Counted from the stretch's first letter, positions 9,854 to 58,339 are shown. The stretch: DNA of 64,000 bases from Lentisphaerota bacterium (GCA_015061865.1 SUVU01000002.1:4243-68242); one strand, 5' to 3'. A program made the numbers and translations. The notes: generated from the letters alone by a model not told the origin.

Positions 9854-9867
9854 AAATCAAACGATCC

Positions 9868-10680: not shown

Positions 10681-10738
10681 GATATACCTCCTGAAATCAG
10701 TTACTTGTACACAAAATATTACCTTGACTTAATATAGG

Positions 10739-11875: not shown

Positions 11876-11876
11876 T

Positions 11877-13217: not shown

Positions 13218-13239
13218 AATTTCATCTCCGATCCAGTGC

Positions 13240-25716: not shown

Positions 25717-26135
25717 ATCACCCGCATCCCGATCAGGCGCATGACGCCATCACGGTCACCGAAAAGCAATTGCAGCAGCAGTTGCCGCCGCACTTCACGG
25801 CCCTGCCGGTCAAATTTGACGAAATCCAGCACCCACACCTGATTTACGACCAGCGGGGTCTGCAGATAAGTCAAAAATCTGAAGCCGGTTATTTTGCCGT
25901 AAGCTCCAGTCAGGTTATCGTATGAGGCTTTGAATTTTTCCGCATCGCCGCTGCGCTCGGATTCACCTGCCGCCTGCAGAAACTGCCGGTAATCCCCGGT
26001 TTGGATCGCCATTACGATCGCTTCGCCCTGCCCTCTTGCCAGATCTGAAGTCGTGATCACCGGCGGTAATTCATCCGCCCGCACTCCAGATATTGCCGAC
26101 ATGGTCACAATGAAAAGCAAAACAACTTTTTTCAT
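25713..26135 (-). CDS. Small secreted protein, translationally coupled to the upstream secretin
   Basis: It has a signal peptide MKKVVLLFIVTMSAISGVRA and an ATGA overlap with the stop of the 26132 gene. 140 aa, family not recognised. Confidence 0.55.
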   Translation of the reverse strand: MKKVVLLFIVTMSAISGVRADELPPVITTSDLARGQGEAIVMAIQTGDYRQFLQAAGESERSGDAEKFKASYDNLTGAYGKITGFRFLTYLQTPLVVNQVWVLDFVKFDRQGREVRRQLLLQLLFGDRDGVMRLIGMRVI

Positions 26136-27793
26136 TTCGTTTTATGCTCCTGCTGATACCCCCACTGACAACTGGCGACTACGACCAATTCCGAGTTTTT
26201 GACCGACTTTGACTTGCTGGAAAACAAATATCCCAAATACGGAATATCAGATAACCACGGGATGCCGGTGGACGATTCTACGACTTCGCTTTTATTCAGC
26301 CCGCCGATCACAAACCCGCCATCACCGGCAAACGGCAGACTGACATTCTGCTTCACCACGCTGCCCTGCGAAATGCGCGGCGCCCCATTGGATTGAAACC
26401 CGATCAAACTGGTGTTACTGAGTTTGATTTCAAATCGGCACTCCTGCAAATTTACCGAAACATTGGCGACCTCCATCGTAAAGCCGTAACCGCCGGACGA
26501 AGTAACGATCTGTTTACTGCCTTTGCCCACCGGAATATCCTGCCGGTCTGCAGCCGCGATCGCCTGACCGATTATATCTGCCAGCCATTGATACGCCCCG
26601 ACTCCGGTATCCGGAGTGGTGACTGCATTGCCGGCAGCTTGAGAGTCATCCACAAAGAAAATCTGTGTTGTCCGGCTGAAAACGCCGCCGGTATTATTGC
26701 GCAGGCACAACTCGCCGGAATGAACGACCTGAGCATAGCCTTTAGCGGCAAGAAAATCCAGATACCGGCTGTTCCATTTGGGGTTGAAATTGAAAAAATT
26801 GCTCCGTTCCGAACCGTAGCTCTGTTTCAAATTACCGGCGACGCCGTAAACTGCCGCCCAGTTGTTGCGATATCTGCCGCCGACTGAAAAAAAATCACTG
26901 CCTTCATTATTTTTCCAACTCTGGAAATCAATTCCGATCCGGTCATCGTTTTCAGAATAAACTTCATAAACCTTTATCTGCAGCCGGACTTGCGGGATCG
27001 GCACATCGTACTGCGACAGCAAATTGGAAATATTTTCGCAGGAATAGTTTGAAACGTCAAAAATCAGCCAGTTCAAATCCTGATCGGTCGTGACCAGATC
27101 CTGCCCCTGCCACAATTCAGTGACATCGCTGACATTCATGCCGACGTTTTCGATCAATGGCAGCAGATTTGCCGCCGGGACGTATTTAGGCATATAAATA
27201 AACATCTGACTGCCCGTGCCAAGTGCGCCCATTGCCGGATCGTCGAACATCGCTACGATCGTATCAATGCCCATACCGTTCTCACTGTCTTTGAAACGGT
27301 ACTCCTCGGCGCTGACGATCAGCAGTCCGGTACCGTCAGAGTATTTCAGACACTCCACGGCAGTATTGCTGCCCAGATTCGCCGCCGGAGCATATCCGGG
27401 CTGAGCAGATGCCGGATTCAACTGGGGTTGAGATGCGGTGGCAGTCACCGGAAACGCCGTCGTATTACCGGGATAACTCTGCACCATACTGGTATTGCCG
27501 ACCCGCTTGCTCTGCACCATCTGCCGCAAATAATCCCGGAACTCATAAGCATCGAGATTTTTCAACACATAAGTTTTAGTCACCACCCGCGGATCATTGT
27601 TATCCCGGACAAAGTGAACCACCTCGGTATCTGTTGACAACGGCAATTGCAGCTGGGCTTCGACCCTGGTTCCGTCATATCCGGCAGTATTACCATTATT
27701 GGAATCCCGCGGCACCCCGGGAACGACTGCCCCTGAAAGCGGCGAAAAAAACAGCATCGCAGCACCAATACCGGCAAATATTTTTATATTCAT
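26132..27793 (-). CDS. Secretin-family outer-membrane channel protein (paralog B, 553 aa)
   Basis: It has a signal peptide. The C-terminal motif is GFVIGGLNKSEVVESSTGIPWLSDIPYLGYLFSSKSKSVKNSELVVV. The N-terminal N0-like segment is FVRDNNDPRVVTKTYVLKNL. Confidence 0.8.
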   Translation of the reverse strand: MNIKIFAGIGAAMLFFSPLSGAVVPGVPRDSNNGNTAGYDGTRVEAQLQLPLSTDTEVVHFVRDNNDPRVVTKTYVLKNLDAYEFRDYLRQMVQSKRVGNTSMVQSYPGNTTAFPVTATASQPQLNPASAQPGYAPAANLGSNTAVECLKYSDGTGLLIVSAEEYRFKDSENGMGIDTIVAMFDDPAMGALGTGSQMFIYMPKYVPAANLLPLIENVGMNVSDVTELWQGQDLVTTDQDLNWLIFDVSNYSCENISNLLSQYDVPIPQVRLQIKVYEVYSENDDRIGIDFQSWKNNEGSDFFSVGGRYRNNWAAVYGVAGNLKQSYGSERSNFFNFNPKWNSRYLDFLAAKGYAQVVHSGELCLRNNTGGVFSRTTQIFFVDDSQAAGNAVTTPDTGVGAYQWLADIIGQAIAAADRQDIPVGKGSKQIVTSSGGYGFTMEVANVSVNLQECRFEIKLSNTSLIGFQSNGAPRISQGSVVKQNVSLPFAGDGGFVIGGLNKSEVVESSTGIPWLSDIPYLGYLFSSKSKSVKNSELVVVASCQWGYQQEHKTK

Positions 27794-27808: not shown

Positions 27809-29260
27809 TTACTTGATTTTTTTCAAAATTCCGGCACTCATTCCATCCGGGCGGGAAGAATTCAACAGCTTTGCGGTAACAGTCACGCAAACATGAGTTT
27901 TTTCAATGCTTTCCGTTTCCGTACTGAATAAATACCGCAATACCGGAATATCAGACAACCACGGAACGCCGATGATCTGGGTAACTTTGCTCTCTTTTTC
28001 CCAGCGCCCCAACAGAAATTCTTTATCCAGCGGGATCAGACAATTTCCGGAAATACGGGAAGTTTCGATCAGCTCGGCACCGACATTATTGCGCTCCACC
28101 ACGTTGGCGGCCTGCAATTCATAACCAAAAAAGAGTGTTCCCGGGATTTTTTTGAACTTCGCCGGATCATAGGCCTCAACAGTAAAAGCCAGATTTCCCG
28201 GATACCCATTCTGACTTTGCCCGTATTGGATATTGACGACCGGAGCAGAAATTTTGGCATAAGTATGATAGAGATCCTCCGCCGCCGCCAGCGCCCCGGT
28301 CGAAACGCTGCTTTTATCATTGTCGCTTTTGCTGATATTCTGCTGTTGAGGATTGAAGTAAACCGCATAATCAGCAGTATTGGAATTAGACACCGTCAAT
28401 GATGCCTGATTGGTGATTTTGGCATTACCATTCTGCTGCAGCATCCGGATAAAACTGGCATCAAATTGCGGAGCGACAAAAAATCCTCCGAACGGTCCGG
28501 ATGCCGCCTGCAATGCCATACTGCCGGCAGAGGACAACCCGAATGCCTGCCATCCGGCTTCAAAAATATTGAGTCCGGGGCCGTTTTTCCACGCCAGATA
28601 CTCAATTCCCAGATCCCGCAGCGAACTCTCCCGGATCTCGTAAATCGTAAAATGCAGTGCCACCTGCGGCGGCGGCCGGTCAAGAAAACTCAAAAACTGG
28701 TAAACATATTCCGTATCAGAGGAATTATCTTTCCAATAGATCTGGTTGCTGTTGGCATCATAAGCATAGATCGCCCCCGCCGGGCCGGTGCCGATCACCG
28801 AATTTATCAACACATCTGCCACCGTCTGCCCGGAGCGGAATTTGGGGCGGTAAACAGCGCGGGTGATTCCGGTACCGCGGATAATATCGCCGCCGTTATG
28901 ACCTGCGATTTTCACTTTGCGGTCAGCTTTGGCGACAAAATCATCCACATACGGCATCATTTCCACCGGACAGGTCACGGTCAGCCATTGCTGATTGTTG
29001 CCGTAATTAACGCTGTCCACGGTGCTGTTGACATTATACCGCATAACGATACCGCTGACAAACGGGATCAAATCGTTGCCCTGAACGTATTTCAGCTTGT
29101 AGATTTTGGAGACCATCCGATCCTGCGCATCATCCTGAATGAAGCGCACGGTGCGGGTTTTCGCCCCCGGAGGACTTTGACCGTACAATGACACAATACC
29201 GACACCGAGAATACCCAGCACTGCCAGGCAGCCTCTCCAACTCAGGGATTTTTGACTCAT
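27809..29260 (-). CDS. Secretin-family outer-membrane channel protein (paralog A, 483 aa)
   Basis: It has a signal peptide. The C-terminal motif is GVPWLSDIPVLRYLFSTETESIEKTHVCVTV. The N-terminal segment FIQDDAQDRMVSKIYKLKYV parallels that of paralog B. Confidence 0.8.
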   Translation of the reverse strand: MSQKSLSWRGCLAVLGILGVGIVSLYGQSPPGAKTRTVRFIQDDAQDRMVSKIYKLKYVQGNDLIPFVSGIVMRYNVNSTVDSVNYGNNQQWLTVTCPVEMMPYVDDFVAKADRKVKIAGHNGGDIIRGTGITRAVYRPKFRSGQTVADVLINSVIGTGPAGAIYAYDANSNQIYWKDNSSDTEYVYQFLSFLDRPPPQVALHFTIYEIRESSLRDLGIEYLAWKNGPGLNIFEAGWQAFGLSSAGSMALQAASGPFGGFFVAPQFDASFIRMLQQNGNAKITNQASLTVSNSNTADYAVYFNPQQQNISKSDNDKSSVSTGALAAAEDLYHTYAKISAPVVNIQYGQSQNGYPGNLAFTVEAYDPAKFKKIPGTLFFGYELQAANVVERNNVGAELIETSRISGNCLIPLDKEFLLGRWEKESKVTQIIGVPWLSDIPVLRYLFSTETESIEKTHVCVTVTAKLLNSSRPDGMSAGILKKIK

Positions 29261-29348: not shown

Positions 29349-31229
29349 TCAAATCCCCCGCGGCACTCCGGCGGCAATAACCCACTCGCCCGGCAGTACT
29401 CTGCCGTTGAGAAAACTGCGGCGGTAATCCCGTTGATGATCACAAACGACCCACAATTCTCCGCCGGAAATATCAAGTATTTCGATCTGCACTTTGCCGT
29501 TGTAAATATTTTCCATCGGCATCATGACCATTTTATACTCATTTTTTCCCGGTGCCGGCGGAGGCAGTTCAAATTCCCGCAACTCCCCGTTGATCCGCAT
29601 GACCAGCGACACCGGCTCATAATTGCACATCATGATCCGCAACTCCGCCGGAACAGTGCCGATCCGGGCAAATTGTTTGCCAATGACCATACCTTTTTTC
29701 ACCGGAATATTCTGCCACCCGCCGAACGGCTGCGGACCATAATCAAAATGCAGTATGTTTTTCCCCTGCAAATCCATGATTATTCCGTCGGGATGAATGG
29801 TTCTCTGCAATGCCGGTTCCATGTCCCGATACCATTCATAACCGCCATTGACCGGTAAAATCCCTAACAGCAATGTTAAAACGATGGTCATTCGGGTCAA
29901 ACGTACTTTGCCGGGCGCCGGATACCTCCAGGCGTTTATCATACTGCATACGGCACCGCCGCCAAAAATTGCCAGCAGCGGCAGCAGCGGTGCTCTGAAG
30001 CGGGATAATATGTAAAACATCACCACTGTCAGATAAAATATCCCCACAAAAGTATATAACAATATCCACCTGCCCCGTTTACATTCTTTTTTGATCCCCG
30101 GCAAAAACCAGAATATTCCAGCTAATCCCAGTGCCAGCAGCACCCGGTTATGCCCCCATGCCAGATATTGCAAAACGAAAGAATTACGGCAGCCGTCATA
30201 TTCCAGAGAAACATTATTCGGGATCTCTCTACCATCCCAGAACAGCAATGCTTTGCGGCACTGCAGCTCGATAAATCCTGCCGGATCGTCGCAAAACCAC
30301 TGCCACATCTGTTCCGGCACCGATACCGCATTGCGGCCTGAAGCATTTGCCATCATCCGCTTGTATGATTCTGAATAATACATCGCCCCTGCCCGTTCCC
30401 ACGGCTCTCTGCCACCGGCAGGCGCATCGATGCCATTGCCGATCGCCAACACCGCATCAGCGGCGGTACTGGCTCCGCACAGGCGCTCTTCAGCGACAGA
30501 ATTACGGATCATAAACGGCAGCTGCACCACGATCATGCAAAACAGAAACAATGCCAGATGCAGCCATGATTTTTTGCGGAATTTGCCACGTTTGAGTGTA
30601 AAAAATGCGATTGCCGGCACCAACATCCAGATATTGCCCCGGGTCAGGATCGCAATTCCGGTAACGGTTCCGGCAGCCAGCCACCATTGCCATTTATCGG
30701 CATCATACGCTTTCAACGTCAGGTATAACAACAATATCAGATGAAAGGTCTGCAAAGTTTCATTCTGGTGATAAGGAACATATAATATCAATGTTGCTGA
30801 AATCGCCGTTAATCCGGCAGCAACCAATCCGGCAGCAGATGAAAAAATTTTGCGCCCGCACCATCCGGTCAGAAACACCGTAGCGGCACTCAGCAGCGAC
30901 TGTACCAAAATTACCGCATAAACCGCCATTTTTGCGCCGCACAGCCAATTTATTGCCGCCAGAAAAACCGCATAATAATAGGGTTGATAATAAAATGTCC
31001 GGGGGAAGTTCCCCGCCGCACACTCCTGCCCCAACTGCATATAAGTAGCTAAATCGCTGGTCTCAGGAGGCGTAAACATATTGTTCATACCGCCGCCGGC
31101 TCTGGACATTTCCCATGCGGCGACCAACCGCAAAATCCAGGCGACAGCGGTGATCAATAGCAGTAAACGGACAAAAAAACCGCCGGGAACACTCTTTCCG
31201 GCGGCTTTTGAAATATCAACGGCTTTCAC
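29349..31229 (-). CDS. GT39/ArnT-like (PMT_2) polytopic membrane glycosyltransferase with a C-terminal soluble domain
   Basis: About 11 TM helices. The first-loop region resembles ArnT/PMT family proteins, and a non-membrane tail of about 170 aa follows. The family call is from architecture and is moderate. Confidence 0.55.
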   Translation of the reverse strand: MKAVDISKAAGKSVPGGFFVRLLLLITAVAWILRLVAAWEMSRAGGGMNNMFTPPETSDLATYMQLGQECAAGNFPRTFYYQPYYYAVFLAAINWLCGAKMAVYAVILVQSLLSAATVFLTGWCGRKIFSSAAGLVAAGLTAISATLILYVPYHQNETLQTFHLILLLYLTLKAYDADKWQWWLAAGTVTGIAILTRGNIWMLVPAIAFFTLKRGKFRKKSWLHLALFLFCMIVVQLPFMIRNSVAEERLCGASTAADAVLAIGNGIDAPAGGREPWERAGAMYYSESYKRMMANASGRNAVSVPEQMWQWFCDDPAGFIELQCRKALLFWDGREIPNNVSLEYDGCRNSFVLQYLAWGHNRVLLALGLAGIFWFLPGIKKECKRGRWILLYTFVGIFYLTVVMFYILSRFRAPLLPLLAIFGGGAVCSMINAWRYPAPGKVRLTRMTIVLTLLLGILPVNGGYEWYRDMEPALQRTIHPDGIIMDLQGKNILHFDYGPQPFGGWQNIPVKKGMVIGKQFARIGTVPAELRIMMCNYEPVSLVMRINGELREFELPPPAPGKNEYKMVMMPMENIYNGKVQIEILDISGGELWVVCDHQRDYRRSFLNGRVLPGEWVIAAGVPRGI

Positions 31230-47051: not shown

Positions 47052-47960
47052 ATGGGACTTTCATTATTGATTCTTGCCGCCGGCATGGGCAGCCGTTACG
47101 GCGGACTGAAACAGCTTGACCAGATGGGACCGTCCGGAGAAACCGTGATGGACTATTCCGTTTTTGATGCCATGCGTGCCGGATTCGACCGGGTGATTTT
47201 TGTCATCCGCCGCGATTTTGAAAATGAATTCAAAAATGTGATCGCCAAACGCTACGAAGGCAAAGTCAAAATGGATTTTGCTTTTCAGGATCTCAACGAC
47301 CTGCCCGGTAATTTCACGCCGCCGGCAGACCGGGTAAAACCGTGGGGCACCGGTCACGCCGTTTACGCCGCCAGACATCTGCTCACGGAACCGTTTGCAG
47401 TTATCAATGCCGATGACTTCTACGGTCAGGACAGTTACCGTCAGTTGGCGGCATATTTGAGCAATCCTCCGGCAACGGATAAAGTTCGCGGCTGTATTGC
47501 GGCATTTCAGTTGAGCAACACTTTGAGTGAAAACGGCTCGGTTTCGCGCGGGATCTGCAGCGACGACGGTCAGGGACATCTTGCCAAAGTCGTAGAAAAC
47601 ACTAAAATTTTCCGCCGCCCGGACGGAGTGATCGTCTCGGCAATGGATGACGGCTCTGAAAACGTGCTGACCGGCAACGAACCGGCGTCCATGAATTCCT
47701 GGGGCTTCATGCCGGAAATCATCGGTAATTTGGAAACGCTGTTCACTGAATTTCTTTCTGCGCACGGCACCGAACTCAAAAGCGAATTTTATCTGCCGTT
47801 TGTGGTCGATTCGCTCATCCAGTCCGGTAAAGCCGAAATCACCATGTGTCACAGCCGGGACAGCTGGTTTGGCGTAACGTATCAGGAAGACCGCCCCGGC
47901 GTGCAGAAAGCCCTGCAAAAACTGGTTGATTCAGGGGCGTATCCCCAGCAACTTTTTTAA
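47052..47960 (+). CDS. Sugar-1-phosphate nucleotidyltransferase
   Basis: The N-terminal segment LILAAGMGSRYGGLKQLD is the G-x-G-x-R nucleotide-binding loop. The substrate is not determinable from sequence. Confidence 0.7.
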   Translation: MGLSLLILAAGMGSRYGGLKQLDQMGPSGETVMDYSVFDAMRAGFDRVIFVIRRDFENEFKNVIAKRYEGKVKMDFAFQDLNDLPGNFTPPADRVKPWGTGHAVYAARHLLTEPFAVINADDFYGQDSYRQLAAYLSNPPATDKVRGCIAAFQLSNTLSENGSVSRGICSDDGQGHLAKVVENTKIFRRPDGVIVSAMDDGSENVLTGNEPASMNSWGFMPEIIGNLETLFTEFLSAHGTELKSEFYLPFVVDSLIQSGKAEITMCHSRDSWFGVTYQEDRPGVQKALQKLVDSGAYPQQLF

Positions 47961-47971
47961 GGAGTATCACC

Positions 47972-49069
47972 GTGGCCATACCGTATTCGCAAAAAGATAT
48001 CCGCCGCTTGATCGGCATGTTTGATGTATATGGAGATTTTCTGGTCGGCGCCCCTTTCGGCAACGGCAATGTCAATGATACATTTCAGTTGACTTATGAT
48101 CAGGGCGGTATCCGGCTCCATTACGCATTGCAGCGGATCAACTCTAATGTATTCAAAAATCCGGTACACGTTATGGAAAACGTCGCCAGAGTCACCGATC
48201 ATATTCTGGAAAAAATCCGTACAGCCAAAGCCGAAACCAGAAAACGCACCCTGCGCCTGCTTCATGCGCATGACGGGAAACCGTATGCGTTTGACGATAA
48301 CGGGAATTGCTGGCGGGCATACGTTTTTGTAGAACACGCCCGGGCTTATGAAGTGCTGGAATCTCCGGAGCAGGCGTTCCGGGTCGCTCAGGGATTTGGC
48401 GAATTTCAACAGCAATTGTCGGACTTCAAAGGCAGACTGCATGAAACCATTCCGGATTTTCACAACACTCCCAAGCGGGTGAACGCTCTGGAGGCTGCGA
48501 TAAAAGCCGACTCCTGCAACCGGGTCAAATCAGTTGCCAGAGAAATTGATTTTGTTCTCAGCCGCAAAGATGAATGTGGTAAACTCCTGCAGCTTCATGC
48601 CGAAGGCTCCATTCCGGAACGGATCACTCACAACGATACCAAAGCCAATAATATTCTGATCGATGACCTTTCCGGTGAAGCGGTGTGTGTGATCGATCTT
48701 GACACCGTCATGCCCGGGTTGTCGCTCTATGATTTCGGTGACATGGTACGCAGCGGCACCAACCCTGCCGAAGAAGATGAAGTAAATCTCGACCGGGTCG
48801 GCATGAGATTTGATATGTATGAGGGATTTTTCGACGGTTTTTTGAATACCGCCGGAGCGATTTTGACCGAAGCGGAAAAAGAAATGCTGCCGTTTTCGGC
48901 AAAACTCATCACGTTGGAAATCGGCATGCGCTTTTTGACCGATTACCTGATGGGCGATGTGTACTTCAAAACCAAGCGCCCGAATCAAAATCTTGACCGC
49001 TGCCGGACGCAATTCAAACTGGTTGAGTCTATCGAAGCGCAAATGAATAAAATGATGGCGTTAATGTAA
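47972..49069 (+). CDS. Anomeric sugar kinase of the APH/phosphotransferase fold, N-acetylhexosamine 1-kinase (NahK)-like
   Basis: GNGNVNDTF (nucleotide loop), catalytic HNDTKANNILID and IDLD. At 365 aa it is similar in length to NahK. GTG start. Confidence 0.6.
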   Translation: MAIPYSQKDIRRLIGMFDVYGDFLVGAPFGNGNVNDTFQLTYDQGGIRLHYALQRINSNVFKNPVHVMENVARVTDHILEKIRTAKAETRKRTLRLLHAHDGKPYAFDDNGNCWRAYVFVEHARAYEVLESPEQAFRVAQGFGEFQQQLSDFKGRLHETIPDFHNTPKRVNALEAAIKADSCNRVKSVAREIDFVLSRKDECGKLLQLHAEGSIPERITHNDTKANNILIDDLSGEAVCVIDLDTVMPGLSLYDFGDMVRSGTNPAEEDEVNLDRVGMRFDMYEGFFDGFLNTAGAILTEAEKEMLPFSAKLITLEIGMRFLTDYLMGDVYFKTKRPNQNLDRCRTQFKLVESIEAQMNKMMALM

Positions 49070-49087
49070 ATCATTGACATAAATCTT

Positions 49088-49120
49088 AAGCCGGTGAAAT
49101 TTCATTTTCACCGGCTTTTT
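49088..49120 (+). terminator. Rho-independent terminator
   Basis: 12-bp stem aagccggtgaaa / tttcaccggctt followed by a T-run. Confidence 0.8.
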
Positions 49121-49420: not shown

Positions 49421-50041
49421 TCAATATTTAAAAAATAATAAAATCGGCGTCTTGCCCGTACTGCACAAAGTAAATTTATCTGCTTCTACTTCATTCAATG
49501 TCCCGCTGTGCCACCACGGCAGAGCCAGATCGACCAGCGGATATTTCAATCCGGTCGAATTCAATTTCTGCAACGGATCAAAACTGAATATCGAAATCTG
49601 GGTCCCTACCGGACAATCAAACTCCCCTGCTCCGGCAAAAACCTGAAAAAATCCCTGCTCGGTATAGAGACGGCATCCGGAAAAATTTACCGCATTTTCA
49701 GCGAAACGGGATAAATTTCCCAACATGTGATCTTCTCTGGCGCCTGATGCGCCCAACACTGCATTCGGAGCCAACCCCTTTTCGGCGCAAAAACGGAATG
49801 CTTTGGCAAGGTCATTGGTCTCCTGCTCACAGAAATGCACCGCTTTAGCAGCAAAACGCAACTTTGTTTCAGGAGAAACGCTATCCAAATCCCCGACTAT
49901 CCAGTCCGGTTCTCTGCCAAATGCGACCAGTTTATCCGCCGCCCCGTCACAGCAAATCACCATTCCGGCGTTACGAAGCATCGCCAATAACTCACTGCGG
50001 CGCGGGAACTCGCCATCAGCAAGGATTATTACCTCATTCAT
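49421..50041 (-). CDS. thiN: Thiamine pyrophosphokinase
   Basis: Motifs ILADGEFP, VICCDGAA and IVGDLDS. The start overlaps the upstream gene by 8 nt. Confidence 0.75.
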   Translation of the reverse strand: MNEVIILADGEFPRRSELLAMLRNAGMVICCDGAADKLVAFGREPDWIVGDLDSVSPETKLRFAAKAVHFCEQETNDLAKAFRFCAEKGLAPNAVLGASGAREDHMLGNLSRFAENAVNFSGCRLYTEQGFFQVFAGAGEFDCPVGTQISIFSFDPLQKLNSTGLKYPLVDLALPWWHSGTLNEVEADKFTLCSTGKTPILLFFKY

Positions 50042-51395
50042 GGATCACTGAAACCACTTTTTCCGGCGGAGTCAACGCCAACTGCCGCTGCACAGCGGGG
50101 ATCGTCCGCAGAACTTTTTCCACCATCAGCGGCGTGATCGCTCTGGTACACTCGATTTCCCGCGGCGTACCGCTGTGACGCGGACACCAAACCGGAGCAT
50201 TAACGTCAAAAAACAACGTCGGATCGCTCCAGCAGCCGTGGCAATAATTAAAGTTGGTGATCCGGTACGGGGTTGGGAACTCCGCACCCTCCATACTGAA
50301 GCCAGCCAACAGCACCACCGGAATATTACAATCCCATGCCACCCAGGACAAACCACTGGGCAAGCCGATGAAAAAGTCAGCGTGCTGCAGCATGGCAATA
50401 CGGTCGGAAATCGGTAAACGTCCGGTGAAATCTTCTGCCTCCGTGGGAATCGAATAATGTTTCCCGGCAAAATTCAAATCATGTTCACGGTCAATATCCA
50501 TCACCCGGAAACCGATAGATTTCAAAAAACGGATCGCCGTGTTCCACCCATCCGGAAAATTCCAATATTTGGACGGATTAGTTGCCATGCTGGAAATGCA
50601 GACAAACGGCTCTTTGAAAGGACGCGGCGCATCCAAATGCAGCCGGACTTTCAAATACTCATGCGGCAGCCCCAGCATTTGCGAAATAGAGCGCTGCATC
50701 CCGAAGTGCTGATGCGCCACCGGACGCCAACTGGTGCGGTCTTTGGGGAAAGCCGAACAATAATACGAAGCATAACCATCATTCAGCGGCGGACGCTCGC
50801 TGACCGGGATGAATTTCAGTTTCGGGTAAAGATCTCCACACAAACGGATAAACCACTCACCGATCACGCACGTCACATCTGCCTGATGCACCCGGCGAAA
50901 CTCCTCTGCATACGGCATCCAGGCAAAATTTTCGCCCAAACCACCGTCCGGCACCACCACATAAACTTTTTTGCCTTTACAATCAAATTTATGTTCAAAC
51001 AACAGCTCTTTGGTGTCTGCATCCGAAATCCTGACGTGGTAACGCAAAAAATATTTACGGTCACCGACGACCATGCCGCCGCCGTCAAGAGTGCTTTCAT
51101 ACAGCGGCAGATCGGTATCCATATCCATTACCAGCACATGGTAGCGACGTCCAGCCGGTAACAGGAAACGGAAACCGAAAATAAAGTCATATTTTATACC
51201 ATGCGGTGCATCCATGCCCGGGACATCACCGAGTTTAATGGTACACTGGGCATTGCGGGGATCCGGACCGATTTCCGGTCCGATCATCGGAGTTTCAGGC
51301 GCTGCCGTTTGCGGAGCGACCGACAACGACACCGGCATTGGATCTGTTTTTATACCTGCGATAGAAATCGGTTGCGGTTTAAATGAATAACCCAT
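50034..51395 (-). CDS. BAHT-family (TibC/Aah-like) O-heptosyltransferase homologue
   Basis: The N-terminus HGIKYDFIFGFRFLLPAGRRYHVLVMDMD follows the TibC/Aah pattern GI-YDFN-GARVLLP. The GT9-like core is AEDFTGRLPISDRIAMLQHADFFIGLPSGLSWVAWDCNIPVVLLAGFS. The Cys motif is CHGCWSD...WCPRH...ECTR, as in the BAHT iron finger. All matches are from recalled family sequences. Confidence 0.7.
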   Translation of the reverse strand: MGYSFKPQPISIAGIKTDPMPVSLSVAPQTAAPETPMIGPEIGPDPRNAQCTIKLGDVPGMDAPHGIKYDFIFGFRFLLPAGRRYHVLVMDMDTDLPLYESTLDGGGMVVGDRKYFLRYHVRISDADTKELLFEHKFDCKGKKVYVVVPDGGLGENFAWMPYAEEFRRVHQADVTCVIGEWFIRLCGDLYPKLKFIPVSERPPLNDGYASYYCSAFPKDRTSWRPVAHQHFGMQRSISQMLGLPHEYLKVRLHLDAPRPFKEPFVCISSMATNPSKYWNFPDGWNTAIRFLKSIGFRVMDIDREHDLNFAGKHYSIPTEAEDFTGRLPISDRIAMLQHADFFIGLPSGLSWVAWDCNIPVVLLAGFSMEGAEFPTPYRITNFNYCHGCWSDPTLFFDVNAPVWCPRHSGTPREIECTRAITPLMVEKVLRTIPAVQRQLALTPPEKVVSVIHE

Positions 51396-51415
51396 TTTTA
51401 TATCCTCAAAGTTTA

Positions 51416-54400
51416 TTAATCGCTGAGATAATCGATCCGGTTGATAAACAATCTGCCGGTCGCCGGATCGCGGACAAATGTCACCATCGCCTTGACTTCA
51501 CCGGTAATTTCGTCAAAATACACATTTAAATCATCGTTATCGGAGTGTTCAAGCGCATCAAATACGCCCAGTTCGCACTTTTTAGCCACCGTGCCGTCCT
51601 CAATTTCATCAACAGTAGAACCATCAATTGCAGTAAACTTGCCTTTGCTGGTTTCGCTGGTGGCTCTGACCTGCACGCCTTTGCGATCCTTAATGCTCTG
51701 GGCAACAATAACGACCTGAACCATTGCCGGCGAAGTGGTTTCAGCACCGAGCAGATTGATCGTTTTGCCGATGATCTCCTCCTGCGCCGCATCGTTATCA
51801 GCAAGAGTTACTTTGCCAAAAACATTTGCCAATGTCCCACTACTGACAAAATTAAGAAACTCCGCCCTGCTCCCGAATGGACGCAGATTGCTGGCAGCTT
51901 TCATTTTGGTAAACACACTTTCATCAGAGGTGACATCTTTTTCATTACTATTACCGCCAACAGCAGGAAATTGTCCGTTAGTACGGGTGGATTCTTTGAT
52001 AAAATCCCCCATATTCTGATTGTAAACCACGCCATTGAAAAGAGCATTGACGATGTTGATATCCAAATCGTTTTTGCCGATCAGGTTGACGTTTATTTTT
52101 CCGTATGAATCCACCCGGTCAGTCATTTTGATCTGCTCCAGCAGAGCGCCGTCACCGTCACTGTATTTCGTCCCGGCATATTTCCAATCTTTATCCTCAT
52201 CAGAGCCTTCGGCATTAAATTTCGGCTCAAAACTATCTGCGGAAAAATCATCCGAATTTCCCGGATTGCCGGCCTTTTTGATATTCAAAGTCTGCCATCT
52301 CAAACCGCGATGGATCACCCCGATTTCCCACGGACTCATCATCGGAGCATTGCGGATATAGGCTGTTGACAAACGGTTTTCGCCTCCCGTGTACGCCGGT
52401 TCGGCGACGGTTTCTTTATCAAAACTGCCGCTGCTGTTCTGCGGGCTGAATTTAGGATCGCCGGAATTGACCAAGCCGCTATCTCCGGCATCATCAATAT
52501 CCATTGCTGACTTGATTTCGGCAAGTGAAGGATTTTTGAAATCAGCCAATTTCACCATTTTGACATTACTTGTCATCCAGTCAGCACCGTAAAGATTCTG
52601 CCGGGGATCATAATTTTTGCCTCCACCGATCAACACTCCGGCGCGCTTGGCATCATTATCAGGAACCAAACTGATTTCCGTATCTGCACCTGTCGCACGT
52701 TCCCATTTGATCTCCTCAAAATGCCCGGCGAAATCCACCCCGATTTCATTATTGGAATTTTTCTCTTTGCCGGTCAAAACGAGACGGCGCGGTTTTATTG
52801 AAACTTTTTTCAGGTCAACTTTCTCCAAAACCACATCCTCGGCCTGATTGGAAACAGTGATATTATACAATTGATCTTTCAATGCGCTTTCCAATTGGCT
52901 CAACGATGTAATATTTTGCGTACCGGTCGTCTCAAAATTTTCAAACTTGACCTTTTCAGGAAGCCCATTACCGGTTCCAGTGCGGAAATCGCCCAATGCT
53001 ACTGAAAAATTGATATTATTCACCGTACATTTCAAATACTGCCAATCAGCGTCCGACTCATTTTTAGCATAAAACAGCGGATATGGATTCGTGCCGGTTT
53101 GATTGTCAAGTTTGTTTTTGGCAAACGGAACCGGCACATTTTTAACCTCTCCGGCATTGTTTTTCCAAACCTCTGCTTCAGGAGCCATCGTCAAATCTGC
53201 CGCAAAAGCACTTTTAAAGGAATTGGCATCCTCGATTTTGACATCCACCGTCGCCGTCCGGCTGTACTTCACCTCATCAATGGTTTCATCAAATGAGAAT
53301 TTGACTTTTTTCAGCGTAAGTGCTTTAGGTGCAAATGTGACTTCGGTTTTTCCGAAATCTACGTATCCATTCATAAACTTATCATCACTGCTGATTGCAG
53401 AAAATGCTTCATCCGGCTTGAAGTCATAAATATTTGCCAATTTCAAAACCGGAAGTGCCTGAAGTCTCACCGCCAGAGAATAAGAGCCGTCTCCAGTAGA
53501 GGTGGTTTTTATTTCCGTTGCAGCAGATTCCGCCGGCACGATACCGAAATTCATTCCGAACTCATACAGATACGGAGTTTTTTCATTACCGGTGAATGTC
53601 GGTATTTTATCGGCAAAATCAGTAGTATAATCAGCAGGCAAATCCTGCAGCCACTTTTCTGCGTTCACATCAGAGGTGGGAATACTGTCTTCATCACAGT
53701 AATCGTTGAAGTTAGCTGCAATCTGTTTGCGCCATGCCATCATGTCCACTTCGCCGCCATCCGCACTGCGGAATGAAGCCCCTGATTCCTCGGCATGACC
53801 GATCAAGCGCAAAAACGGCAAGCCGGATTTTTCAGAAATATCCTTATCTTTTTGCGGCTCTTTGGACGGCAGGTAAAGCAAACTTCCCAACGTCAGTTTA
53901 TGGACCGCAGTTTTGCTGTTTTTATCGCTGTCAGCAGAAATTCCCAATCTGCCGTACCACTTGTCACTGCCGTAGTCGCCCTCGGAAATATTGAAACGCA
54001 TCAATTGCTGTTTCGGCCCTTTTTTGTCCTTTTGATAAACGTATACTTCCGGAAAGATCGGAAATGGTTTGGCAACCGTTCCATATCCGTCCTCTTCGGT
54101 AAAATCAGGGATCAACCATGTTTTGATCCAAGTCTGCACTGCAGTATCGTCTTTTAAGTAAGAAAACAAACTTTCGAAGTCGTTGATTTTGGTATCCGGA
54201 GTAATTGCCTGAATTTTGTCATTAATAAAATCCGGGGTTCCATCATTTTCATCCAAATACACCTCATCGATCTCTCTGCCCCAGCGATGATTACTGGCTC
54301 TAAAGGTGGCGTCGTCAGGATCGATTTTTTCAACCTTACCGCGCATAAACACCGGAGCCAAAATCTGGGCGCTGGATGTCACTACCTGCCAGGCGGCACG

Positions 54401-54922
54401 ACCGACGATCTCCCGATCATTACCGTCTTTTTTATTGTAGAAAAAGACCCAACTGCCATCCCATGCATCTTTCGCACCTTTTTCTTTTTTAAATCTGGCA
54501 TTATATGCCACAGCAAAGCCTTTTTCGACCAGAGAGCTGTCCTCAAGCAGCAGCATTTTGGATGATGAATTAGTTTTTTTCAACAAACCATCGGTAATCA
54601 TGGTACCGCTGTCAGCGCTTTTCCCGTCAGAATCGTATGCCCCATAGCTGTAAATTTTATCAAAGTTATCCGGAGCATCATCATTATCGATCGCCTGCTG
54701 CTGGTAAACCATGATTGATGCGGCAGCCCGATTGGCAGCAGAAAGCACCAGCATCCGAGCCTGAGTACGGGAACTGTTGTTGCGGGCGACTTTTTTGAAA
54801 ATCAACGCATTACCGAGAAATGCCAGCCCCACAGCCAGCATCAACCCCAGCAAACCGATGGCAAAAACCAGAGCGACACCGCTTTCGCGCCTGTTATAGT
54901 ATTTGAATTTGTGTTTCATCAT
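51416..54922 (-). CDS. Giant GspK-like minor pseudopilin (1168 aa)
   Basis: The N-terminus NRRESGVALVFAIGLLGLMLAVGLAFL resembles a GspK/PilX-type anchor. The C-terminal 300 aa or so carry SPWEIGVIHRG and GKINVNLIG, which are GspK-like. About 780 aa of unassigned sequence lies between them. An ATGA overlap couples it to the upstream gene. Confidence 0.65.
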   Translation of the reverse strand: MMKHKFKYYNRRESGVALVFAIGLLGLMLAVGLAFLGNALIFKKVARNNSSRTQARMLVLSAANRAAASIMVYQQQAIDNDDAPDNFDKIYSYGAYDSDGKSADSGTMITDGLLKKTNSSSKMLLLEDSSLVEKGFAVAYNARFKKEKGAKDAWDGSWVFFYNKKDGNDREIVGRAAWQVVTSSAQILAPVFMRGKVEKIDPDDATFRASNHRWGREIDEVYLDENDGTPDFINDKIQAITPDTKINDFESLFSYLKDDTAVQTWIKTWLIPDFTEEDGYGTVAKPFPIFPEVYVYQKDKKGPKQQLMRFNISEGDYGSDKWYGRLGISADSDKNSKTAVHKLTLGSLLYLPSKEPQKDKDISEKSGLPFLRLIGHAEESGASFRSADGGEVDMMAWRKQIAANFNDYCDEDSIPTSDVNAEKWLQDLPADYTTDFADKIPTFTGNEKTPYLYEFGMNFGIVPAESAATEIKTTSTGDGSYSLAVRLQALPVLKLANIYDFKPDEAFSAISSDDKFMNGYVDFGKTEVTFAPKALTLKKVKFSFDETIDEVKYSRTATVDVKIEDANSFKSAFAADLTMAPEAEVWKNNAGEVKNVPVPFAKNKLDNQTGTNPYPLFYAKNESDADWQYLKCTVNNINFSVALGDFRTGTGNGLPEKVKFENFETTGTQNITSLSQLESALKDQLYNITVSNQAEDVVLEKVDLKKVSIKPRRLVLTGKEKNSNNEIGVDFAGHFEEIKWERATGADTEISLVPDNDAKRAGVLIGGGKNYDPRQNLYGADWMTSNVKMVKLADFKNPSLAEIKSAMDIDDAGDSGLVNSGDPKFSPQNSSGSFDKETVAEPAYTGGENRLSTAYIRNAPMMSPWEIGVIHRGLRWQTLNIKKAGNPGNSDDFSADSFEPKFNAEGSDEDKDWKYAGTKYSDGDGALLEQIKMTDRVDSYGKINVNLIGKNDLDINIVNALFNGVVYNQNMGDFIKESTRTNGQFPAVGGNSNEKDVTSDESVFTKMKAASNLRPFGSRAEFLNFVSSGTLANVFGKVTLADNDAAQEEIIGKTINLLGAETTSPAMVQVVIVAQSIKDRKGVQVRATSETSKGKFTAIDGSTVDEIEDGTVAKKCELGVFDALEHSDNDDLNVYFDEITGEVKAMVTFVRDPATGRLFINRIDYLSD

Positions 54923-55674
54923 TCACCACTCCTGTGTCCCAGCAAAATTGCCCGGCGGAACGTATAACCATATTCTGAAAAAATTTCTTTCTTCTTATCA
55001 TCATCTCCATCTTTCCACCGCAGATACGCTTCTTTGTTATCAAGCAGAGAAATCTCCACCTCGATCATATACGGCGGAGTGATAAAAGATGAGCCATCTT
55101 TGAATGCAGATGAAACACTTTCCTGCGGCTTCAGTTCCCAGTTATTGCCATTTTTGACTGCAAAAAAGCCATGAATTTTAAAATCAGTCACGTTATCTAT
55201 CAATTCAACTGTTTCCGAACTTCCAAGTTTGCTGCTGACAGCATCCCAAGCTGTTATAGCAGCATCCTGATTTTTGAACGGCGGAAAATGTGCAATAAAC
55301 TTGCGGCTTTCCTCTTTACCCGCATATATTCTCATCACCAGCGTACCGGCATTGGCATCACGCTCAAATTTCAGAAACCGCAAATAATATTCATCATCAC
55401 GGTTATCCATCGGCATGGAGGTAGCGAACCAAATTTCGTTATCTTTCATGCTGAACGGAACATTTTCATAGTAGACAAGCGTCTGCATCCGCACCGCAAC
55501 AAATTCCATCGCAGTCCGGGCATCGGCAAAAGCATTGGTCTTTTGCTCCGACCTCACCCACAACTGCTGCGCTCCGGAAAACAATCGCATCGATACCAGC
55601 AAAAGTATGCTGAAAACCGCCATTGCGGCAAGCAGCTCCACCAGTGTAAATTTTTTATATTGTAATTTTCTCAT
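54919..55674 (-). CDS. GspJ-like minor pseudopilin
   Basis: N-terminus MRKLQYKKFTLVELLAAMAVFSILLL (prepilin-type methylation motif FTLVE). 251 aa. Confidence 0.65.
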   Translation of the reverse strand: MRKLQYKKFTLVELLAAMAVFSILLLVSMRLFSGAQQLWVRSEQKTNAFADARTAMEFVAVRMQTLVYYENVPFSMKDNEIWFATSMPMDNRDDEYYLRFLKFERDANAGTLVMRIYAGKEESRKFIAHFPPFKNQDAAITAWDAVSSKLGSSETVELIDNVTDFKIHGFFAVKNGNNWELKPQESVSSAFKDGSSFITPPYMIEVEISLLDNKEAYLRWKDGDDDKKKEIFSEYGYTFRRAILLGHRSGE

Positions 55675-56360
55675 GGCGTCCCCTGGGTCGGCAACACATA
55701 GTGTTCATTAAAAATTTCAAACCGGAAATAACTTTTTTCACGTTCTTCGTATGGTACTTCTGCCGGATAACTGAGTTCCAGCACCAGCGGCAGCAGAACA
55801 TCATCCATATTAACTTTGCCAACTTTTTCGTACAACATATATTTCGGCTCTGCATTGTCTTTGGCAATGTAAAAGAACTCCTTTGTCATGCTGTCTGTAT
55901 CGACATAAACTCTGGCAATCGCAGAAAAATCCACAAATCTCTCATCTTCCGGTCCGGACATCTGGCGTACCAGGAAAACATTTTTTTTATTTTTAGACCG
56001 CAGCAAAGATGCGTTTTCTATTTTATCGTGATCATCTTTACCGCTTTTCAGCAATTCCGGAACTTCCCACTGGCTGTCGTCCCCGCCACTGACGGCATTA
56101 TTGCCGCTGACATCGCTGATCTCATCTTTCACATCTGCCCATGTCCCAAAACCGGAGCCGCTGGCAGTATCCATATTGATCTGCGCCCGGACACCGGAAA
56201 TAACCAACTCTGCCAAATCAGCAATACTATTGTCGGCGGCGGCATTTTTATGCGCAGACAACCCGGCAGGAAACAGCACAAATACACTCGATAATCCCAG
56301 AGAGATCACCACAATTGCGAGCATCACCTCGACCATGTTGAAATATCTTTTATTCAGCAT
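55671..56360 (-). CDS. GspI-like minor pseudopilin (degenerate leader)
   Basis: N-terminus MLNKRYFNMVEVMLAIVVISLGLSSVF, with Glu at +5 relative to Phe. 229 aa. Confidence 0.55.
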   Translation of the reverse strand: MLNKRYFNMVEVMLAIVVISLGLSSVFVLFPAGLSAHKNAAADNSIADLAELVISGVRAQINMDTASGSGFGTWADVKDEISDVSGNNAVSGGDDSQWEVPELLKSGKDDHDKIENASLLRSKNKKNVFLVRQMSGPEDERFVDFSAIARVYVDTDSMTKEFFYIAKDNAEPKYMLYEKVGKVNMDDVLLPLVLELSYPAEVPYEEREKSYFRFEIFNEHYVLPTQGTP

Positions 56361-56363
56361 AAA

Positions 56364-57005
56364 TCAATCCTCTTTGTATTTCACTCTGCCGGTCACAAAG
56401 TTGAGAATCAAAGTAACCTTATTGTCCTCATTGGGGAAGTCATATTTTGCCCGCTCGTCATCGGTATTTTCCCCGGAATACGCCGCTTCTGTGAACGAAA
56501 ACTCCAAGTTCCGGTCACCGACCACACCGCCATACGGACTGAATATCACCGCCTTACGGTTTTGGTCATCTCCCAGAGATGTCCAATCCTCATCTTCAGA
56601 AACCGATGAATCCAATTTCAAATCTTTCAAATTGGTAACCAATTGCAAAAATCTCGCTCCGTCTGCGGCATTGCGCCAGGAACTGCCCGGAACCCAACCG
56701 AAAAAATGTCCTTCTTTATCCACAAACGCCAAACGGTAGCCGCCATCACAATACGGCTGCAATCTTTTGTCAGCTTTGCCATAGTACTGCGGAATGACCA
56801 TCGCCACATATTTGCGTGATGAAACCGCTTGCGCCTGCGCCATTTCCAACCCGAGTTTAAAATCCGATGCCGCCTGATCGACTTTACTGCCGAACATCAT
56901 CCGGCTGAATGCCGGTACAAACATGGCGATCAACGCCCCGGCAATTGCCACCACGGCGATCATTTCGATCAGCGTGAACGACTTTTTTATCTTTACAGTT
57001 TTCAT
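56364..57005 (-). CDS. GspH-like minor pseudopilin
   Basis: N-terminus MKTVKIKKSFTLIEMIAVVAIAGALIAM after trimming to the ATG at 57005. The longer ORF would run through the promoter and terminator. Confidence 0.65.
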   Translation of the reverse strand: MKTVKIKKSFTLIEMIAVVAIAGALIAMFVPAFSRMMFGSKVDQAASDFKLGLEMAQAQAVSSRKYVAMVIPQYYGKADKRLQPYCDGGYRLAFVDKEGHFFGWVPGSSWRNAADGARFLQLVTNLKDLKLDSSVSEDEDWTSLGDDQNRKAVIFSPYGGVVGDRNLEFSFTEAAYSGENTDDERAKYDFPNEDNKVTLILNFVTGRVKYKED

Positions 57006-57039
57006 TATGGAATTTCCCCAATATTTCACTATCGGCGAT

Positions 57040-57068
57040 ACTATAAACTGCAACTGCACTTTTTTCAA
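57040..57068 (-). promoter_or_regulatory. Sigma70-like promoter of the pseudopilin operon: TTGAAA, 17-nt spacer, TATAGT
   Basis: On the minus strand, the -35 is at 57068-57063 and the -10 at 57045-57040, directly downstream of a terminator. Confidence 0.5.
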
Positions 57069-57100: not shown

Positions 57101-57130
57101 AAAAAAAGCGTATCCGTTGTCCGGATACGC
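57101..57130 (-). terminator. Rho-independent terminator
   Basis: The minus strand reads GCGTATCCG-GACAA-CGGATACGC followed by TTTTTTT. Confidence 0.85.
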
Positions 57131-57145
57131 CATTTTTCACCGTTT

Positions 57146-58339
57146 TCACTTGTCCCAACTGGTATTGCCGAGAACACCTTCATTGAAAAACACCGCCTTG
57201 CAGCCCATTTCTTTCAGACATTCTGCGGCACACTCCAAACGCTGCAGGTGATCCGGCAGGTAATTGGGGTAATACGGGAACGTATACTGCTCATGGCTGG
57301 CGGCATTAAATACCTCAAAACCGCTTTTTTCGGCTCTGGCGGCAACTGCCTCATAACGTTTCGGAATCTCATCCAGCGGCACCAGATTGCAGCAGACACT
57401 GTTTTGTCCAAAAAAGAACAGATCAATCAAAGGATCATAATACACCGATGATTGGGCGAGATAATTCCGGGGTTCGTAAAAACCGTAATGCAGATTCAAC
57501 CCTTCCGTTTCCGGATTGCGGTCGACTCCGGAAGCAGAACGCTTTTCAATTGCCGCCATATTGCCGCCTTTCTGACGGTCGGCAAGACTCGGTCCGCCCA
57601 TCACCCGGGGATGCAGGTTATTGCTATACGCTCTGGTGCCGCGCCGGATCATCTCCTGCGCCACGGCCGGATGGATATTAGCCCAGTGAATAACTATCGG
57701 CGGCACGAAACTCCCCTCCCCGGCGAAACGGATGATCTCATTCTGCACCATATCCCAATCTTTGCCGAACTCCTCTGCAGATGCTTCGCAGTAGGGACGG
57801 TCGGGAAACTCACTGTACGCATGAAACGAAAACTTCAGCCAATCGGCATTATCCTGAAATTCACTTTTCCAGGTATCAGGCATGTCTTTCAGCAGAAATT
57901 CATGATGCGCATTGTGATAAAAGGTATTAAGGGTGAATTTCGTTCCAAATTTGCGGTGGATATTTCTCAAGCCGCCCAGATAAAAGTGGTCAAACGCACT
58001 GGCAGGACGCTCTTTTGCCAGATCGGTAAAAGTAAAAATATGATCGTCGATATAAAAATCATTGCGCCGGAACGATTTTTTATCCCAAACCAGTTTCAAC
58101 TCCTGGCTGTAATTGCCATACGGCGTAACCGCAGTTGCCGTAACGGTATTGATTTTTTCAGTCAAAGCGATTTGAGCAGAAAAATTCCGTCCGCACATTT
58201 CCGCCGTTATTCCGTTTATTTTCACCGGACAACCCAATTCAGAAATACCGCTGATTTCAACGGTCAATGCTGATTCGGTTTCAGTACCGTGATTATGGTT
58301 AAGCACCGCTCCCTGCCGATGACTGGTGATTTCCAACAT
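57146..58339 (-). CDS. Hypothetical cytoplasmic protein (N-terminal beta-sandwich-like region plus a carbohydrate-enzyme-like C-terminal domain)
   Basis: A long ORF bounded by terminators on both sides. No signal peptide and no recognised catalytic motif. Confidence 0.5.
   Translation of the reverse strand: MLEITSHRQGAVLNHNHGTETESALTVEISGISELGCPVKINGITAEMCGRNFSAQIALTEKINTVTATAVTPYGNYSQELKLVWDKKSFRRNDFYIDDHIFTFTDLAKERPASAFDHFYLGGLRNIHRKFGTKFTLNTFYHNAHHEFLLKDMPDTWKSEFQDNADWLKFSFHAYSEFPDRPYCEASAEEFGKDWDMVQNEIIRFAGEGSFVPPIVIHWANIHPAVAQEMIRRGTRAYSNNLHPRVMGGPSLADRQKGGNMAAIEKRSASGVDRNPETEGLNLHYGFYEPRNYLAQSSVYYDPLIDLFFFGQNSVCCNLVPLDEIPKRYEAVAARAEKSGFEVFNAASHEQYTFPYYPNYLPDHLQRLECAAECLKEMGCKAVFFNEGVLGNTSWDK

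Follow-up and report, generated by a model that had tools for sequence, protein, structure and literature searches.

A conserved putative minor-pilin cassette with a giant fourth protein in Victivallales, joined in one sub-branch by a BAHT-family heptosyltransferase gene

A 64,000-nt stretch of the genome of a Lentisphaerota bacterium (GCA_015061865.1, SUVU01000002.1:4243-68242; hereafter the window, with positions counted from its first nucleotide) carries at 49421-57068 a run of six genes, which raises the question of whether the tip of a type IV filament has here been coupled to an enzyme that glycosylates proteins. The first four genes encode proteins that resemble, in order, the minor pseudopilins GspH, GspI, GspJ and GspK of type II secretion systems (T2SS), and they are followed by genes for a TibC/Aah-family (BAHT) protein O-heptosyltransferase (the glycosyltransferase, GT) and a thiamine pyrophosphokinase (TPK). 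In a preliminary description made from the sequence alone, the run was presented as a self-contained operon with no core genes of a T2SS or a type IV pilus (T4P) nearby, in which a pseudopilus tip module and a cytoplasmic heptosyltransferase are joined in an arrangement not familiar from described systems. Our analysis leads to a different emphasis. The four upstream genes probably encode the minor-pilin tip set of a type IV filament, one that is typical of Victivallales, while the GT and the TPK are probably passengers.

The list of open reading frames (ORFs) agrees exactly with the six co-directional genes of the preliminary description, all on the minus strand (Table 1), and with their junctions. 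The H-like and I-like genes are separated by 3 nt, the I/J and J/K junctions are 4-nt ATGA overlaps, a gap of 20 nt lies between the giant fourth gene (K) and the GT gene, and the GT and TPK genes overlap by 8 nt. The H-like gene starts with the ATG at 57005, which is preceded by GGGGAAA; the mechanical ORF extends further upstream. Coordinates and family scores are likewise in agreement with a unit that has its own promoter and runs in the order H-I-J-K, followed by a true BAHT gene and a TPK gene.

Table 1. Positions of the cassette, its flanking signals and the secretin-domain genes in the window
Feature	Position	Strand	Description
Secretin-domain gene 1	26132-27793	-	553 aa; PF00263 58 bits
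Secretin-domain gene 2	27809-29260	-	483 aa; PF00263 46 bits
12-bp hairpin	49088..49117		350-nt gap between convergent APH-family gene and TPK; listed by the scan as a plus-strand terminator
Thiamine pyrophosphokinase (TPK)	49421..50041	-	206 aa; TIGR01378
BAHT-family (TibC/Aah) protein O-heptosyltransferase (GT)	50034..51395	-	453 aa; TIGR04414
Giant K-position protein	51416..54922	-	1168 aa; N-terminus ..RRESG then VALVFAIGLL
J-like minor pilin	54919..55674	-	251 aa; leader MRKLQYKK then FTLVEL
I-like / PilV-like minor pilin	55671..56360	-	229 aa; leader MLNKRY then FNMVEV
H-like minor (pseudo)pilin	56364..57005	-	213 aa; leader MKTVKIKKS then FTLIEM
Sigma-70-type promoter TTGAAA-17-TATAGT	57040..57068	-	10/12 consensus matches; top-scoring site
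Intrinsic terminator of the upstream 397-aa gene	57107..57131	-	hairpin GCGTATCCG/CGGATACGC, 10 pairs (6 G-C), then T7

The four upstream genes travel together in related genomes. A profile of the giant protein, run against one genome for each GTDB species, yielded 119 relatives, and 73 loci were kept. All loci with a taxon name belong to Lentisphaerae/Victivallales, including Victivallis vadensis DSM 14823, a cultivable species that carries the cassette in L017, and two are labelled just 'uncultured bacterium'. Genes for H-, I- and J-like proteins lie upstream of the giant gene in 50 of the 53 related loci with enough flank.

To assign the proteins to families, curated cut-offs were applied to the Pfam and NCBIfam (TIGRFAM) matches, and because none of the four upstream proteins passes any of these cut-offs, they were tested at the family level as well, by scanning their relatives. 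The profile searches that had been proposed for all six proteins thus gave a divided result: the GT and the TPK score above their cut-offs, whereas the H-, I- and J-like proteins are of pilin type but below them, and the giant protein of the window has no Pfam or NCBIfam match. The H-like protein matches TIGR02596 (Verru_Chthon D) over its full length (E = 8.9e-8; 32.4 bits, cut-off 70), PF12019 GspH over residues 46-173 (20.1 bits, cut-off 21), and TIGR01708 (GspH) in its N-terminal part only (28.9, cut-off 80). A profile search of 1.84 billion proteins gave 461 clusters of H-like relatives at E <= 1e-10; when 98 diverse representatives were scanned, TIGR02596 was matched by 98 and GspH by 88 of them. 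The profile of the H family also aligned with E. coli GspH in hhalign, with 94% probability over 67 residues.

The I-like protein matches the PilV model TIGR02523 (E = 4.8e-5; 23.9, cut-off 52.2) and, more weakly, TIGR02598 (Verru_Chthon B; E = 0.085; 13.1, cut-off 51.4), and it gave no match to GspI (TIGR01707). Among its orthologues, PilV is matched by 33 of 56 (best E = 6.4e-9) and TIGR02598 by 22 of 56. For the J-like protein the best match is TIGR02599 (Verru_Chthon C; E = 5.4e-11; 42.3, cut-off 256.5), found in all 58 orthologues, while GspJ (TIGR01711; E = 7e-4; 19.4, cut-off 64.85) is matched over residues 9-67 only, and by 22 of the 58 orthologues. The N-termini of the three proteins after the leader, FTLIE, FNMVE and FTLVE, are each followed by a hydrophobic tract, type IV pilins having about 21 hydrophobic residues there, with PF07963 and TIGR02532 matches near threshold. 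With rare exceptions, the H-, I- and J-like proteins keep Phe at +1 and Glu at +5; a small number of distant ones have Tyr at +1. These features, together with the Gly at -1 and missing Glu5 of the fourth protein, as in GspK, bear out the pilin-type N-termini claimed for all four. The family matches would suit either a secretion pseudopilus or a pilus, the I-like protein being nearer to PilV than to GspI and the H-like protein resembling GspH and ComGD.

The fourth protein had been called GspK-like, which is appropriate for its gene position, for its N-terminal 55-90 residues or so, and for its Gly at -1 without Glu5, but not for its body. Among 41 relatives of the giant protein, NF037980 GspK was matched by 31 and TIGR02600 (Verru_Chthon A) by 8, in both cases in the N-terminal 55-90 residues only; the scores reach at most 24 bits for GspK (cut-off 130; profile positions 2-89 of 307) and at most 19.6 for TIGR02600 (cut-off 332.3). 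Gly at -1 and the absence of Glu5 are common to all 55 orthologues. Since only 23 N-terminal residues could be aligned with E. coli GspK by hhalign of the family profile (17% probability), we dropped the term 'GspK homologue' and speak of a GspK-type N-terminus instead.

The AlphaFold 2 model of the 1168-aa protein (predicted local distance difference test, pLDDT, 82.5; predicted template modelling score, pTM, 0.78) is confident and consists of a 63-residue N-terminal helix (residues 16-78), a beta-rich middle whose strands reach 25 residues in length, and a C-terminal sheet. Searches with the family profile against sequences in the PDB gave no matches at E <= 1, and Foldseek searches of the PDB with the full-length model gave only meaningless matches to beta-toxins (TM < 0.07, root-mean-square deviation near 29 Å). 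A separate model of the C-terminal residues 836-1168, in which a GspK-like alpha-domain was sought, was poor (pLDDT 59) and yielded nothing in Foldseek, and the family scans revealed no PilY1 (IPR008707) or vWA signature in the giant protein. The body of about 1000 aa is lineage-specific. It also changes fast: the cassette proteins have nonsynonymous distances (dN) of 0.29-0.59 as against 0.04-0.06 for the GT, i.e., they evolve about ten times faster, which fits exposure at the surface.

Two further observations concern this family. One of the 41 relatives (P0039) has, at residues 536-658 in its beta-rich central region, a weak match to the flagellar cap protein FliD (E = 1.2e-4); it may be due to chance, but a real match would agree with a role in capping the filament. 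In several distant Victivallales loci (L057, L059, L065, L070-L072), 3-10 kb separate the J-like gene from the match to the C-terminus of the giant protein, i.e., the fourth protein is much larger there or is accompanied by extra genes, and the architecture varies at depth.

The curated families that come closest to the set are those of the Verru_Chthon cassette, an uncharacterised gene cassette of Verrucomicrobia that is known as database models, and of which our literature search found no mention. Verrucomicrobia belong, like the Lentisphaerae, to the Planctomycetes-Verrucomicrobia-Chlamydiae (PVC) superphylum. Three of the four proteins have their best curated match in a Verru_Chthon family, D being the top family for 98 of 98 H-like proteins and C for 58 of 58 J-like proteins. 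Further, the TIGR02600 model has 1296 positions, so that Verru_Chthon A is also giant, with a GspK-type N-terminus. However, the scores are far below the cut-offs, the matches to C and A reach the N-terminal helix only, and the J-like protein here has 251 aa compared with the 361 positions of the C model. Because all four cut-offs failed, the Lentisphaerae set, as compared by family models, would be a sister cassette of Verru_Chthon rather than a member of it. The tie between Lentisphaerae genes and these orphan families suggests that a tip module whose GspK-type subunit is giant is shared across the superphylum.

The cassette can also be set beside characterised systems. The cassette has the same four-gene order as gspHIJK, and overlapping junctions are also found in E. 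coli gspH-K. Its fourth protein is like GspK in having Gly at -1, no Glu5 and an enlarged body, the enlargement of GspK being due to an inserted alpha-domain (PMC8179133); however, it comprises 1168 aa compared with 327 aa, and the similarity is confined to the N-terminal helix. Further differences from gspHIJK are that H, I and J lack Gly at -1 here, and that no gspG, gspE, gspF, gspL, gspM or gspO is adjacent. In Pseudomonas, fimU-pilV-pilW-pilX-pilY1-pilE forms a stand-alone minor-pilin operon, separate from the genes for the ATPase, the platform and the secretin. The present cassette is likewise stand-alone, and its I-like protein matches PilV better than GspI, but it has no fifth or sixth pilin gene, and its large protein is itself of pilin type with a class III-like N-terminus, whereas PilY1 is a non-pilin with a beta-propeller. 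Modular pilins are widespread and tip-located, GspK being among them, and the large end protein of about 1100 aa fits the design of a carrier plus an effector module, as in PilB and PilC of S. sanguinis and CofB of enterotoxigenic E. coli (PMC8179133). The giant protein is a probable modular tip pilin, and the cassette is a variant of GspHIJK and FimU-PilVWX with a giant lineage-specific fourth subunit, non-Gly leaders and no adjacent machinery.

By analogy with GspH-I-J-K and FimU-PilV-W-X(+Y1), we infer how such a set might work. The cassette is very probably transcribed from its own conserved sigma-70-type promoter, and the four proteins would insert in the inner membrane via their hydrophobic N-terminal helices. 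H, I and J might serve as adaptor and core, and together with the fourth protein form a tip and initiation complex that primes the polymerisation of the major pilin, with the ATPase, platform, peptidase and secretin being encoded elsewhere. The fourth protein, which has no Glu5 and a body too large for the filament shaft, would cap the filament, such that its body of about 1000 aa, lying, as the extra mass of GspK does, between the N-terminal helix and the C-terminal sheet, would be displayed at the tip as an effector module. This body most likely would bind a ligand or a substrate.

A difficulty for any pilin assignment is the residue that precedes the predicted cleavage site. Class III signal peptides end, by definition, in Gly or Ala (PMC8179133), and the H-, I- and J-like proteins of the window, with Ser, Tyr and Lys at -1, respectively, do not conform to this definition of a type IV pilin leader. 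Their relatives are no different: Gly at -1 occurs in 1 of 52 H-like proteins (commonly R, S, K, N or H instead), in 2 of 56 I-like proteins (commonly Y, N, R, F or K instead), in none of 51 J-like proteins (commonly R, K, S, N or H instead) and, when the H family is taken more widely, in 6 of 134 sequences. Together with the failure to find a gene for an ATPase, a platform protein or a prepilin peptidase in the window, this would be expected if H, I and J were uncleaved bitopic inner-membrane proteins that form, with the giant protein, a periplasmic or surface complex independent of any type IV filament machine. We regard such a complex as fairly unlikely. The missing Gly is lineage-wide, as it is also absent from all 22 other prepilin-like ORFs outside the cassette in the same loci (in the prepilin-like proteins here, R, S, Q, H, K and N occur instead), and this argues for an altered specificity of the peptidase rather than for a loss of processing. 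Moreover, Phe at +1 and Glu at +5, which matter to methylation and to assembly, have been retained almost throughout, the leaders are short (5-12 residues) and basic in the manner typical of prepilins, and the window contains two secretin genes. The simplest reading of the counts at -1 would be that the specificity of the prepilin peptidase has changed throughout the lineage, which could be tested directly. The idea that the non-Gly residue is an oddity specific to the cassette was rejected on the count of the 22 ORFs. Our literature search found nothing relevant on prepilins with a non-Gly residue at -1 or on pseudopilins of Lentisphaerae or Victivallis. The 22 prepilin-like ORFs outside the cassette are of an abundant type (loci L001-L073; for example, L006:2207-3133 and L027:490-1437).

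Taken for the whole 64 kb, the claim of no T2SS or T4P core genes is not strictly true. Among the approximately 46 ORFs of the window that were scanned, we found no pilin ATPase, platform protein, prepilin peptidase or further FTLxE-type pilin, but two secretin-domain genes are present in tandem about 22 kb from the cassette (Table 1). They have partial matches to the GspD, PilQ, MshL, YscC and Amuc_1098 families, all far under the cut-offs, and they may provide the outer-membrane channel for a filament tipped by the cassette proteins. The pair is flanked on the minus strand by genes for a 140-aa protein with a signal peptide (25713-26135) and for a 626-aa membrane glycosyltransferase of the PMT_2 family (29349-31229). 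An 'orphan' cassette without core genes beside it is nothing out of the ordinary: T2SS genes can be dispersed, those of Legionella being split over five loci (PMC6617341). With two secretins present and such dispersal documented, we also rejected the use of a 64-kb window as evidence of absence.

The upstream boundary of the cassette is well marked, and both the strong terminator and the TTGAAA-17-TATAGT promoter that had been reported ahead of the first gene were recovered. The terminator, a hairpin with a T-run, begins 15 nt past the stop codon of the 397-aa gene that precedes the cassette, and it shields the cassette from transcription coming from that side. The promoter scan as a whole performed at chance level (12 sites found, 12.4 expected). 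When the 130 nt that precede the H-like gene are aligned between related species, however, TTGAAAAA-N13-GCAGTYTATAGTATC proves to be kept in 16 species while the surrounding bases vary. Because it is conserved although synonymous sites between the species that carry this footprint are near saturation, the element is very probably a real promoter, as judged from the phylogenetic footprint. At the other end of the cassette, 3-20 nt separate the giant gene from a following TPK gene in some members of the family, and this suggests that the operon is transcribed constitutively.

Whether the GT is part of the system is a separate question. Its assignment as a TibC/Aah-family homologue is secure, with a full-length match to TIGR04414 of 386.5 bits against a cut-off of 200, and with E = 1e-92 against the sequence of the TibC structure 4RB4. 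Roles have been assigned to residues of TibC, including Asp110 as the proposed catalytic base (PMC4358343). The cysteines of the TibC iron finger (C339, C342, C358 and C370) correspond to C385, C388, C404 and C416 of the GT, the ADP-heptose contacts T226, K230, R286 and W305 correspond to T272, K276, R332 and W351, and P300 is also kept. Asp110 aligns with Glu155, an apparently conservative change that is found in 5 of 36 aligned sequences, the other 31 having Asp. Further differences from the known BAHT enzymes are an N-terminal extension of about 55 aa, a host among the Lentisphaerae rather than the Proteobacteria, and the lack of an autotransporter gene behind it. In sequence, then, the GT looks like an ordinary and active BAHT enzyme in an unusual host. 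Glu155 is common to the GT of the window and its three closest aligned relatives (P0121-P0123, 66-92% identical), and the extension in this group carries a conserved IGPEIGPDPRN motif.

The preliminary description coupled the tip module to the heptosyltransferase, and it had named a lack of synteny between the two in related genomes as a sign of chance adjacency. Such a lack is what we largely found. Among the 49 loci with at least 2.1 kb of downstream flank, the giant gene is followed by GT and TPK in 3 (L006, L014 and L018), directly by TPK in 11, and by neither in 35. When the giant protein is placed in a neighbour-joining tree, one clade unites the loci with TPK only, and those with the GT, among them the window, branch next to each other, so that the GT linkage goes back to one gain or one loss in one sub-branch. 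Conversely, no relative of H, I, J, K or TPK was found within 10 kb of any of 85 other BAHT loci, which comprise 5 Lentisphaerae-clade loci, 75 metagenome loci of a clade with approximately 40% identity, and 5 further places. Elsewhere in the Lentisphaerae, one relative of the GT lies in a cluster with a beta-helix protein, one beside an ABC transporter, and one alone. These distributions suggest that the GT is a passenger that entered behind the giant gene and ahead of TPK, or was kept at that site, in a single sub-branch. The TPK is probably a passenger as well, a housekeeping gene added in one clade at the 3' end of the operon; it matches the equivalog model TIGR01378 with 118.7 bits (cut-off 76.4), and PF04263 and PF21275 are above threshold.

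The beta-helix cluster (L074-L076, positions 8958-13947) is conserved and contains, in order, a radical-SAM/SPASM protein, a BAHT enzyme (P0162, 55% identical), PqqD, NTP_transf_5 and a 384-aa beta-helix protein (NosD/Pect-lyase). This set of genes has the look of a maturation cluster, and heptosylation could act there on the beta-helix protein or on a peptide.

The GT has nevertheless been at its site for long. In tblastn comparisons of the window with L006, L014 and L018, the GT is 90-94% identical, the TPK 65-74% and the giant protein 37-44%. The high identity of the GT prompted us to consider a recent horizontal transfer, which was rejected: its nucleotide identity to the orthologues is 78-84%, its synonymous sites are near saturation (proportion of synonymous differences, pS, 0.59-0.73), and the ratio of nonsynonymous to synonymous change (dN/dS) is 0.02-0.035, compared with 0.06-0.35 for neighbouring genes. 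The GT is therefore old at this site and very strongly constrained, and a constraint of such strength is plausible for a dodecameric enzyme such as TibC (PMC4358343).

It could be supposed that in this sub-branch the GT is a functional part of the system, adding heptose to the giant tip protein or to H, I or J while these are still in the cytoplasm, so that a glycosylated pilus tip results after export. The gene lies behind a single conserved promoter, 20 nt after the giant gene with no terminator between them; its position is kept in the window and in L006, L014 and L018 despite the divergence of the giant protein; it is under the very strong constraint just described; no autotransporter gene adjoins it in the window; and the change from Asp110 to Glu at the catalytic base is shared with P0121-P0123. 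However, 46 of the 49 related cassettes lack the GT, i.e., the cassette does not need it, none of the 85 other BAHT loci is near a cassette gene, and the linkage is due to a single gain or loss. The 397-aa gene and TPK are syntenic too, and because the whole neighbourhood is conserved in this way, a retained position is expected without any function and carries little weight by itself. The known substrates of BAHT enzymes are folded beta-helix passenger domains, which are modified inside the TibC dodecamer (PMC4358343), whereas the model of the giant protein predicts long strands of up to 25 residues and no beta-helix, and one Lentisphaerae relative of the GT adjoins a beta-helix protein instead. 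Nor is the giant protein enriched in Ser and Thr in the GT-bearing loci (0.134-0.148, as against 0.124-0.172 elsewhere). Heptosylation of the cassette proteins is thus quite unlikely in our estimation, and it is very unlikely that a BAHT enzyme was recruited in this Victivallaceae sub-branch for glycosylation of the giant tip pilin or of the minor pilins that accompany it. If it were true, such a recruitment would provide the first class of non-autotransporter substrates for BAHT enzymes and a route by which a type IV filament would be O-heptosylated in the cytoplasm, and the clade-specific change from Asp110 to Glu would mark an altered acceptor. BAHT genes are often, but not obligatorily, followed by the gene for their autotransporter substrate (PMC4358343); in the flanks within the window no autotransporter gene follows the GT, the next gene being TPK. 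The GT probably acts on a beta-helix or autotransporter-like protein whose gene lies elsewhere, and its adjacency to the cassette should not be taken for a new glyco-pilus system without direct evidence.

Several points weigh against the reading of the cassette as a minor-pilin tip set with two passengers. All scores of H, I, J and K against curated families are under the cut-offs. No assembly machinery or major pilin was identified that would indicate the type of filament. The processing of H, I and J by a canonical prepilin peptidase is uncertain, since they have neither Gly nor Ala at -1, and no similarity of the giant body to GspK, PilX or PilY1 was detectable with hhalign or Foldseek. As regards the passengers, the GT has been held 20 nt after the giant gene, with no terminator between, in at least four deeply diverged species and under very strong purifying selection, so that a functional tie is possible in that sub-branch. 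The minor-pilin tip set still appears to us the probable explanation, given the conserved gene order, the pilin-type N-termini and the family-level matches.

Victivallales are a lineage of the gut and rumen for which, to our knowledge, there is almost no experimental cell biology, and a conserved minor-pilin set would offer a concrete target for finding out which filament they make. The putative 1168-aa tip subunit is conserved across the order and fast-evolving, and it is annotated as 'hypothetical' in every named homologue record.

Upstream of the cassette, the window contains genes for the conserved 397-aa protein, a Ser/Thr kinase, a SurA-like chaperone, a Sua5/YrdC-family protein and a sodium:solute symporter of the SSF family. 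The 397-aa protein (57146-58339, minus strand) reaches no curated cut-off, its sole Pfam match being to Glucodextran_B (20.3 bits, cut-off 27); its gene, which ends just before the terminator, is syntenic in L006 and L018, where the protein is 73-74% identical. The kinase encoded upstream of it has 685 aa and a Cys-rich N-terminal segment.

Downstream, and convergent with TPK, a nucleotidyltransferase (302 aa) and an APH-family kinase (365 aa) are encoded as a pair on the plus strand (47052-49117). No equivalog model was matched by these two proteins, and the pair resembles the salvage pairs of a sugar-1-kinase and a nucleotidyltransferase. The hairpin between this pair and TPK (Table 1) could end both transcription units and would thereby close the operon, the role on the minus strand being a possible one.

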